This document shows positions 60,957 to 61,011 of a DNA stretch of 64,000 bases, one piece after another. The DNA comes from a virus. Taxonomy: Duplodnaviria > Caudoviricetes. Made by a program: the position numbers and the translations under genes. Under the pieces are notes generated by a model. It saw only the letters and a program-made list of their open reading frames with translations. It searched no databases and was not told where the DNA came from. The stretch lies in the IMG/VR virus record IMGVR_UViG_3300037067_010449, positions 6,143 through 70,142 of that record; one strand, 5' to 3'. Within the stretch, counting starts at the first letter, position 1; each line of letters starts with the position of its first letter.

Positions 60957-61011
60957 CCTTCTAACTGAGCCAATAGACGGTCACAAGTCCGTGAAAATCA
61001 GGAGTGGAAGG
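60957..61011 (+). ncRNA. Twister ribozyme (type P1), copy 1
   Basis: P1 CCTTC/GAAGG, TAA, P2 CTGA/TCAG, GCCAAT, P4 ACGG/CCGT, loop TCACAAG pairing with GAGTG. Confidence 0.85.

Follow-up and report, generated by a model that had tools for sequence, protein, structure and literature searches.

Ribozymes that cut RNA recur between the genes of phages, and the locus described here raises the question of what a self-cleaving element may do when it lies between the stop codon of one phage gene and the ribosome binding site of the next. Hammerheads (Perreault et al. 2011, PMC3088659) and twisters (Felletti et al. 2017) are among the intergenic ribozymes of phages and prophages, both as cited in a review (PMC6765202). 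Reviews place bacterial twisters near phage genes (PMC6765202, PMC8782182), and PMC6765202 gives the proposal that bacterial and phage-linked twisters process polycistronic mRNA, with the structures at the new ends setting the stability of the pieces. What the thousands of twisters in bacteria and phages do biologically is, in the words of reviews (PMC6765202, PMC5408937), still a matter of speculation. The twister stems P1, P2 and P4 are described as essential and P0, P3 and P5 as optional, the scissile bond is a U-A step beside P1, and the T1 pseudoknot joins loop L4 to internal loop L1 by three Watson-Crick pairs (PMC5408937). A twister without P1 cleaves at a near wild-type rate (PMC5408937), and cleavage leaves a 2',3'-cyclic phosphate and a 5'-OH (PMC8782182).

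The window analysed here is a stretch of 64,000 nucleotides from an uncultured phage for which neither the phage nor the IMG/VR collections contain a close relative. Its gene-like ORFs of at least 110 aa all lie on the + strand, and two twister ribozymes come after tail-sized genes, a C39-like peptidase and a PIG-L deacetylase. A preliminary description of the sequence had assigned the first ribozyme to the leader of an early gene. This assignment is not borne out, as the genes concerned follow tail and lysis-like genes in an all-+ array, and promoter-like and terminator-like sites in 56900-64000 occur at chance level.

Infernal, run with all 4227 Rfam families, matched the type-P1 twister model (twister-P1, RF03160) at 60958-61010 on the + strand over its full length (model positions 1-68). 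The match scores 52.6 bits, with an E-value of 2.6e-11 on 251 nt and 6.6e-9 on the whole 64-kb window. Both this copy and a second one (53.8 bits) fall under the RF03160 gathering score of 67.2 bits, which is a database threshold and not a structural feature of the class. They do so because the optional P3 hairpin is missing: the one long deletion in the alignment is that 6-bp hairpin (model positions 15-33). At the level of the sequence, E-values of about 1e-9 lie far beyond chance and are decisive for twister-P1 despite the sub-gathering scores. At gathering thresholds the Rfam search of the window reported a tRNA alone, and the Rfam scan gave no further ribozyme class in the window at E of 0.05 or below, or at 0.01 or below in L115, a contig of the phage relative described below. 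The phage tRNA gene lies at 20452-20522 of the window (40.1 bits); the relative carries one at L115:8243-8315 (57.9 bits), downstream of its overlap with the window.

The preliminary description had proposed a complete twister fold at 60957-61011 with a cut after T60962. Every element that it listed is found there (Table 1), and the predicted cut agrees with the position of the UAA, with the model match and with an alignment of 38 sequences described below. Stems P1, P2 and P4 occur in canonical order with the termini in P1, and all their pairs are standard in both copies as aligned by Infernal. The conserved nucleotides of L1 and L4 are complete (UAA, GCC, GGUC, CAAG, CCG, AAA and GAG), and the U-A scissile step adjoins P1. 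This is the order of the type-P1 twister as reviewed in PMC5408937 (RF03160; Roth et al. 2014), namely P1, UAA, P2, GCC, P4 with a GGUC.CAAG.CCG loop, AAA, P2', GAG.G and P1', and the window copies resemble that type further in having both pseudoknots and the U-A step beside P1 within 53 nt. Behind the P4 loop, ribozyme 1 runs through GAAAA, UCAG, GAGUG, GAAG and the purine run GAAGGUAAGGAAA to the ATG at 61024. Unlike the RF03160 consensus, the window copies, whose cleavage is a prediction, are without P3 and have a T1 of CAC/GUG instead of CCC/GGG, the middle pair being altered on both sides with pairing kept. P2 reads CUGA/UCAG, compared with the usual UGCA/UGCA, and keeps all four pairs; T2 is formed by G-U and C-G in copy 1 and by G-C and C-G in copy 2. 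The rice twister Osa-1-4, 54 nt long and free of P3, is of similar size.

Ribozyme 2 has its predicted cut at U63491/A63492. The two copies are the sole twister matches of a covariance-model scan of the 70,142-bp IMG/VR record from which the window is taken, and exact ribozyme patterns searched in IMG/VR gave no match beyond this genome. The copies are identical at 52 of 55 positions, with differences that preserve pairing (A-U to G-U in P4, G-U to G-C in T2, from copy 1 to copy 2). They are paralogs, and the features that they have in common are not independent.

Table 1. Coordinates of the ribozymes, their flanking strands and the neighbouring genes (window numbering).
Feature	Position	Strand	Description or basis
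LPD29-domain gene	60284-60904	+	directly upstream of ribozyme 1; TAA stop 60902-04
Pyrimidine-rich anti-SD, 5' strand of outer helix	60906-60921	+	begins 2 nt after TAA stop 60902-04
P0 hairpin of ribozyme 1	60922-60957	+	GGCTGGTTGAG 60922-60932 / CTCAACCAGCC 60947-60957; 11 bp, 14-nt loop; sequence, folds
Twister ribozyme 1, type P1, without P3	60958-61010	+	RF03160 match and fit to 38-sequence covarying alignment
P1 of ribozyme 1	60958-61 / 61007-10	+	CUUC / GAAG; possible fifth pair C60957-G61011; sequence
UAA of ribozyme 1	60962-64	+	predicted cut U60962/A60963; sequence
P2 of ribozyme 1	60965-68 / 60998-61001	+	CUGA / UCAG; sequence
GCC of ribozyme 1	60969-71	+	followed by AAUA linker (4 nt) where P3 would be; sequence
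T2 pseudoknot of ribozyme 1	60969-70 / 60987-88	+	GC / GU; sequence
P4 of ribozyme 1	60977-79 / 60990-92	+	ACG / CGU; 3 bp closing loop GGUCACAAGUC; sequence
T1 pseudoknot of ribozyme 1	60982-84 / 61004-06	+	CAC / GUG; sequence
Purine strand	61007-61022	+	P1 3' strand (61007-10/11), then SD GAAGGUA (61011-17); sequence
61-aa Cys-rich ORF	61024-61209	+	first gene on predicted 3' cleavage product
ORF 61213, 63 aa	starts 61213	+	after ORF 61024
552-aa DNA methyltransferase	61401-63059	+	Dam-like and DUF4942; between the two ribozymes
ORF 63183, 86 aa	starts 63183	+	last gene before ribozyme 2
Pyrimidine-rich strand upstream of copy 2 P0	63446-63464	+	begins 3 nt after TAG stop 63441-43
P0 hairpin of ribozyme 2	63468-63486	+	GCCCGG / CCGGGC, 7-nt loop; sequence, fold
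Twister ribozyme 2, type P1, without P3	63487-63539	+	RF03160, 53.8 bits, E 3.1e-9
74-aa ORF	63552-63776	+	directly 3' of ribozyme 2
Pentapeptide-repeat protein	63801-63998	+	after 74-aa ORF

The window copies belong to a wider set. A fixed-length pattern for the CAC/GUG variant of T1, run over IMG/VR, matched at least 112 viral contigs, and parsing and removal of duplicates left 92 unique loci among the matches listed. From these and the window we took an alignment of 38 P3-less twisters that includes both window copies and the one ortholog of copy 2. Under the published structure 96% of its cells pair, with P2 at 100% and P4 at 99%, while shuffled sequences reach 77% and slid controls no more than 48%. 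Double-sided changes occur at all five P1 pairs, all four P2 pairs, the outer P4 pair and one T2 pair; the T2 position is GC in 36 of the sequences, AU in one and GU in one. Across the 38 phage sequences, window copies included, 27 columns are invariant. As a side observation, the RF03160 cut-off of 67.2 bits misses this P3-less form, the window copies and the ortholog scoring 52-54 bits.

The hairpin directly 5' of P1 and the ribosome binding site directly 3' of it, both pointed out in the preliminary description, are real, and the layout is kept in copy 2 even as the P0 sequences of the two copies are unrelated. P0 of a twister sits 5' of P1. At 64 of the 92 phage loci listed, a hairpin ends no more than 1 nt from the 5' strand of P1, as against 80 of 460 random control positions on the same contigs, and 42 of these 64 hairpins are at or below -8 kcal/mol. 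A Shine-Dalgarno (SD)-like motif and an ORF start follow no farther than 90 nt away at 57 of the 92 loci listed (median distance about 29 nt). The window ribozymes are thus ordinary examples from a large population of phage type-P1 twisters that have P0 and no P3, and hairpin, ribozyme and SD form a routine phage module. The hatchet ribozymes, a different class, offer a parallel: about 90% of their environmental sequences carry a P0 5' of P1 that is not needed for cleavage (PMC10761166), much as P0 accompanies the twisters of the window and of 64 of the 92 phage loci listed. By analogy, the P0 stems of the two classes may serve the same purpose. A role of P0 as an intrinsic terminator was considered and set aside, as both hairpins lack a T-run behind them and neither was called in the terminator scan. 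The preliminary description had also drawn attention to an extra TACCTTC in the P0 loop of ribozyme 1; the motif is there and is absent from the P0 loop of copy 2, which leaves it unsupported as a functional element.

Like the intergenic ribozymes of phages and prophages, the window copies lie between genes on the sense strand, with several in one operon and phage accessory genes beside them; the locus departs neither from the known twister class nor from its known genomic setting. The methyltransferase and pentapeptide-repeat genes, together with the ATP-grasp and sigma-70-like genes of the relative, look like an accessory or anti-defence set. The 61-aa ORF directly behind ribozyme 1 has no Pfam or PHROG match. 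Within the C-terminal part of the LPD29-domain gene there is a 39-nt in-frame repeat at 60701-60766 (GAAGTTAT[T/C]GAA..., 13 codons apart), of which the relative apparently has one unit fewer.

That relative was the sole one found. Megablast of 59000-63000 against GenBank phages gave no match, and a protein-based locus search of IMG/VR with the methyltransferase as bait gave no relative. The 74-aa ORF behind ribozyme 2, in turn, has a single homologue (86% identity, same context). It sits on three contigs (L115, L116 and L117) that are identical in the ribozyme regions compared, are about 90% identical to the window, and come from JGI Ga0172380_10008652, Logan SRR6484325 and ENA ERZ27247358. 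In this relative ribozyme 2 is intact (52.4 bits), and the genes continue with an ATP-grasp enzyme and then a sigma-70-like protein. Its ribozyme 1 has lost P0, the cut site and the 5' strands of both P1 and P2, along with the end of the LPD29 ORF. The deletion junction lies at a shared CCAAT (L115:1-399, which equals L116:2873-3550 and L117:2-670; window 60713-60966). The result is an in-frame fusion of the LPD29 gene to the 61-aa ORF, giving a 225-aa gene whose reading frame runs through what is left of the ribozyme, its 3' half; ORF 61024-61209 itself is conserved on all three contigs, with changes mostly synonymous or conservative. Because the relative has lost its 5' half, ribozyme 1 is not essential, and the two genes that flank it appear from this sequence to tolerate fusion.

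One feature sets the locus apart from other intergenic phage ribozymes: a predicted outer helix also ties the hairpin of the predicted 5' product to the SD of the 3' product. The SD motif GAAGGTA (61011-17) is separated by 6 nt from the ATG at 61024. The same motif at 60270-60276 lies 7 nt before the ATG of ORF 60284, and this phage seems to use it repeatedly as an SD variant, beside AAAGGAGG (for example at 61197). The + strand of the window has five instances of its complement, TACCTTC, three of which (60911, 60933 and 63458) lie upstream of the two twisters at a distance of 50 nt or less. The minimum free energy (MFE) fold of 60895-61035, at -52.1 kcal/mol, has a z of -5.1 (0 of 200 shuffles as good), and in it 60906-60921 pairs with 61007-61022 over 16 bp (2 of them G-U), displacing the 4-5-bp P1 and leaving P2 and P4 intact. 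This duplex alone amounts to -25.0 kcal/mol (z -5.2 in composition-preserving shuffles). When P1 is enforced, the fold is at -47.6 kcal/mol and the SD remains covered by 11 bp. In either fold, then, the SD is paired to a strand on the opposite side of the predicted cut; the folding programs used leave out the pseudoknots that stabilise the native fold, and pyrimidine and purine tracts pair easily.

Copy 2 has a weaker version. There, 63446-63464 forms an imperfect helix with 63536-63552 in the MFE fold, the duplex being at -13.5 kcal/mol (p 0.05 against shuffles). The differences between the copies downstream of the ribozyme (GUAAGGAA versus AAAGAAAAA) are mirrored by matching differences upstream, and in the ortholog of copy 2 an A-to-G change turns a C/A mismatch of the outer helix into a C-G pair. 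As a general feature of phage twisters the outer helix is rejected: over 74 other loci the mean z is -0.09, with p of 0.05 or below in 4 compared with 3.7 expected, and only two loci (L064 and L019) show something comparable to the window locus. L064 (284-460 on the - strand) is an unrelated phage contig with a twister that has P0 and no P1. A 9-10-bp outer helix (CCUUUUCAA / UUGAAAAGG) there surrounds both P0 and the ribozyme and takes in the SD of the gene that follows, which makes L064 an independent example of a predicted SD clamp across the cut. On these predicted folds the clamp is a lineage-specific part of the window locus, with its weaker version in copy 2 and the single ortholog.

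The preliminary description had read the upstream TACCTTC strand as a competitor of P1. The pairing that it proposed is real and extends to 16 bp, but the folds assign the strand a different role: since P1 is dispensable for twister catalysis (PMC5408937) and the SD stays covered by 11 bp with P1 enforced, 60906-60921 is better read as a putative anti-SD clamp than as an anti-P1 inhibitor of cleavage. A switch that turns cleavage on and off through competition between the true P1 5' strand and the TACCTTC copies upstream is very unlikely. It would draw on the MFE folds, in which the upstream strand pairs with the P1 3' strand for a gain of 4.5 (copy 1) or 3.9 kcal/mol (copy 2) over the P1-enforced folds; the same programs, however, ignore the pseudoknots that hold the native fold together. 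Moreover, a P1-less twister cleaves almost as fast as the wild type (PMC5408937), the alternative helix of copy 1 spares P2, P4, T1 and T2, and the P0-loop motif is not conserved in copy 2.

The analysis establishes the fold and its statistical support, the covariation of the family, the recurring layout of P0, twister and SD, and the predicted clamp; cleavage in vivo, protection of the new ends and any effect on translation are inferred. Both elements, in two intergenic gaps of a co-directional array, would be functional type-P1 twisters with P0 present and P3 absent, and both probably self-cleave and cut the operon transcript into pieces. Each would fold during synthesis of the polycistronic RNA and cut between U and A of its UAA. 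The upstream piece would then end in the P0 hairpin and CUUCU with a 2',3'-cyclic phosphate, and the downstream piece would start with a 5'-OH and a compact ribozyme body with two pseudoknots that abuts the next SD. The hairpin 5' and the ribosome binding site 3' of P1 fit a cut that leaves a 3' end capped by a hairpin and a structured leader that begins with a 5'-OH. Between the cuts, the product would be a separate mRNA with structured ends that carries ORF 61024, ORF 61213, the 552-aa DNA methyltransferase and ORF 63183. Circularisation of this 2.5-kb RNA by a host RtcB-type ligase, through its 5'-OH and 2',3'-cyclic phosphate ends, would suit the known end chemistry of twisters (PMC8782182) and the presence of two ribozymes around four genes, but is extremely improbable given the length of the segment, the single intact ribozyme of the relative, and the fact that we noticed no end-joining complementarity between 60963... 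and ...63491.

Access to the SD was computed for precursors and products. In copy 1 the probability that the SD is unpaired rises from 0.00 in the precursor to 0.76 in the isolated 3' product, and the two products are predicted to associate at -25.6 kcal/mol. The values are 0.16, 0.97 and -14.0 kcal/mol in copy 2, and 0.13, 0.84 and -10.2 kcal/mol in its ortholog. The coupling of cleavage to exposure of the ribosome binding site, put forward in the preliminary description, therefore stands in one respect, in that the predicted SD pairing of the precursor is lost once the 3' product is on its own. It fails in another, as the halves would still be held together by about -26 kcal/mol in copy 1, so that cleavage alone would not expose the binding site. 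The predicted association energies (-25.6 and -14.0 kcal/mol) imply that release of the SD needs another agent. Cleavage would turn the intramolecular clamp into a duplex of two molecules, which a terminating upstream ribosome, a nuclease or a helicase could then remove permanently. That the clamp adds translational coupling, or one-way activation after cleavage, we consider somewhat to quite unlikely, and that it is incidental about as unlikely.

In another account, the outer helix is an ordinary device for coupling translation of ORF 61024 to that of the LPD29-domain gene, masking the SD until it is melted by the ribosome that terminates at 60902-04, with the twister sitting apically and acting independently of it. 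The anti-SD strand begins just past a stop codon, at 2 nt in copy 1 and 3 nt in copy 2. Given the footprint of a ribosome, a strand 2-3 nt beyond the stop should be within reach of a terminating one. The clamp survives enforcement of P1, and the in-frame 225-aa fusion in the relative is compatible with gene products that cooperate, although it may be a chance outcome of the deletion at the CCAAT microhomology. Rapid co-transcriptional cleavage, on the other hand, would separate the cistrons and would be odd inside a coupling element, and there is no covariation beyond one close relative. We regard this account as possible, if somewhat unlikely.

The ribozymes could instead be active and near-neutral passengers, duplicated P0-twister cassettes that spread between intergenic gaps, with the SD complementarity as a by-product of pyrimidine and purine tracts and of CCUUC duplication that has no regulatory role. 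The near-identity of the copies beside their unrelated P0 hairpins speaks for this view. So do the persistence, in three assemblies, of a relative without the 5' half of ribozyme 1, the marginal clamp of copy 2 (p 0.05) and the lack of any trend over the 74 other loci; reviews, too, still call the function of bacterial and phage twisters unknown (PMC6765202, PMC5408937). Against a by-product stand the 16-bp helix of copy 1, whose z of about -5 was obtained with composition-preserving shuffles, the matched upstream and downstream differences between the copies, and the restored C-G pair of the ortholog. The strong enrichment of the P0-twister-SD layout in phages, moreover, argues for selection of the module. 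Overall, we judge it unlikely that the ribozymes are such passengers.

The reading that we prefer, twisters that cut the operon transcript into pieces, leaves room for a further step at the clamp. An engineered type-P1 twister with SD and anti-SD placed in P1 gave 5-fold more expression in its cleavage-active form than in its inactive form (Felletti et al. 2016, PMC5052635), and this 5-fold effect indicates that the principle of masking an SD in this manner can work. The locus resembles that switch in having a type-P1 twister in a 5' UTR and an SD predicted to pair with a strand across the cut. It differs in being natural, and in that the predicted anti-SD lies beyond the P0 hairpin and forms 11-16 bp, which would be too stable to dissociate unaided. 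A one-way switch licensed by translation can be imagined, in which the cut separates anti-SD from SD and the first terminating ribosome strips off the 5' fragment, permanently activating the downstream mRNA; taken on its own, this is quite unlikely.

For the twister class the locus leaves present knowledge unchanged, and it offers a compact natural test case. It brings together a near-identical pair of ribozymes whose P0 hairpins are unrelated, an SD abutting P1 that the predicted folds clamp across the cut, and a relative with a half-deleted ribozyme and fused genes. For the family in phages, it follows that standard Rfam gathering thresholds overlook P3-less twisters, a form found at 48 of the 92 unique loci among the matches listed. 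The one-way switch, if true, would be the natural counterpart of the synthetic SD-masking twister switches and would give a phage twister a concrete role.
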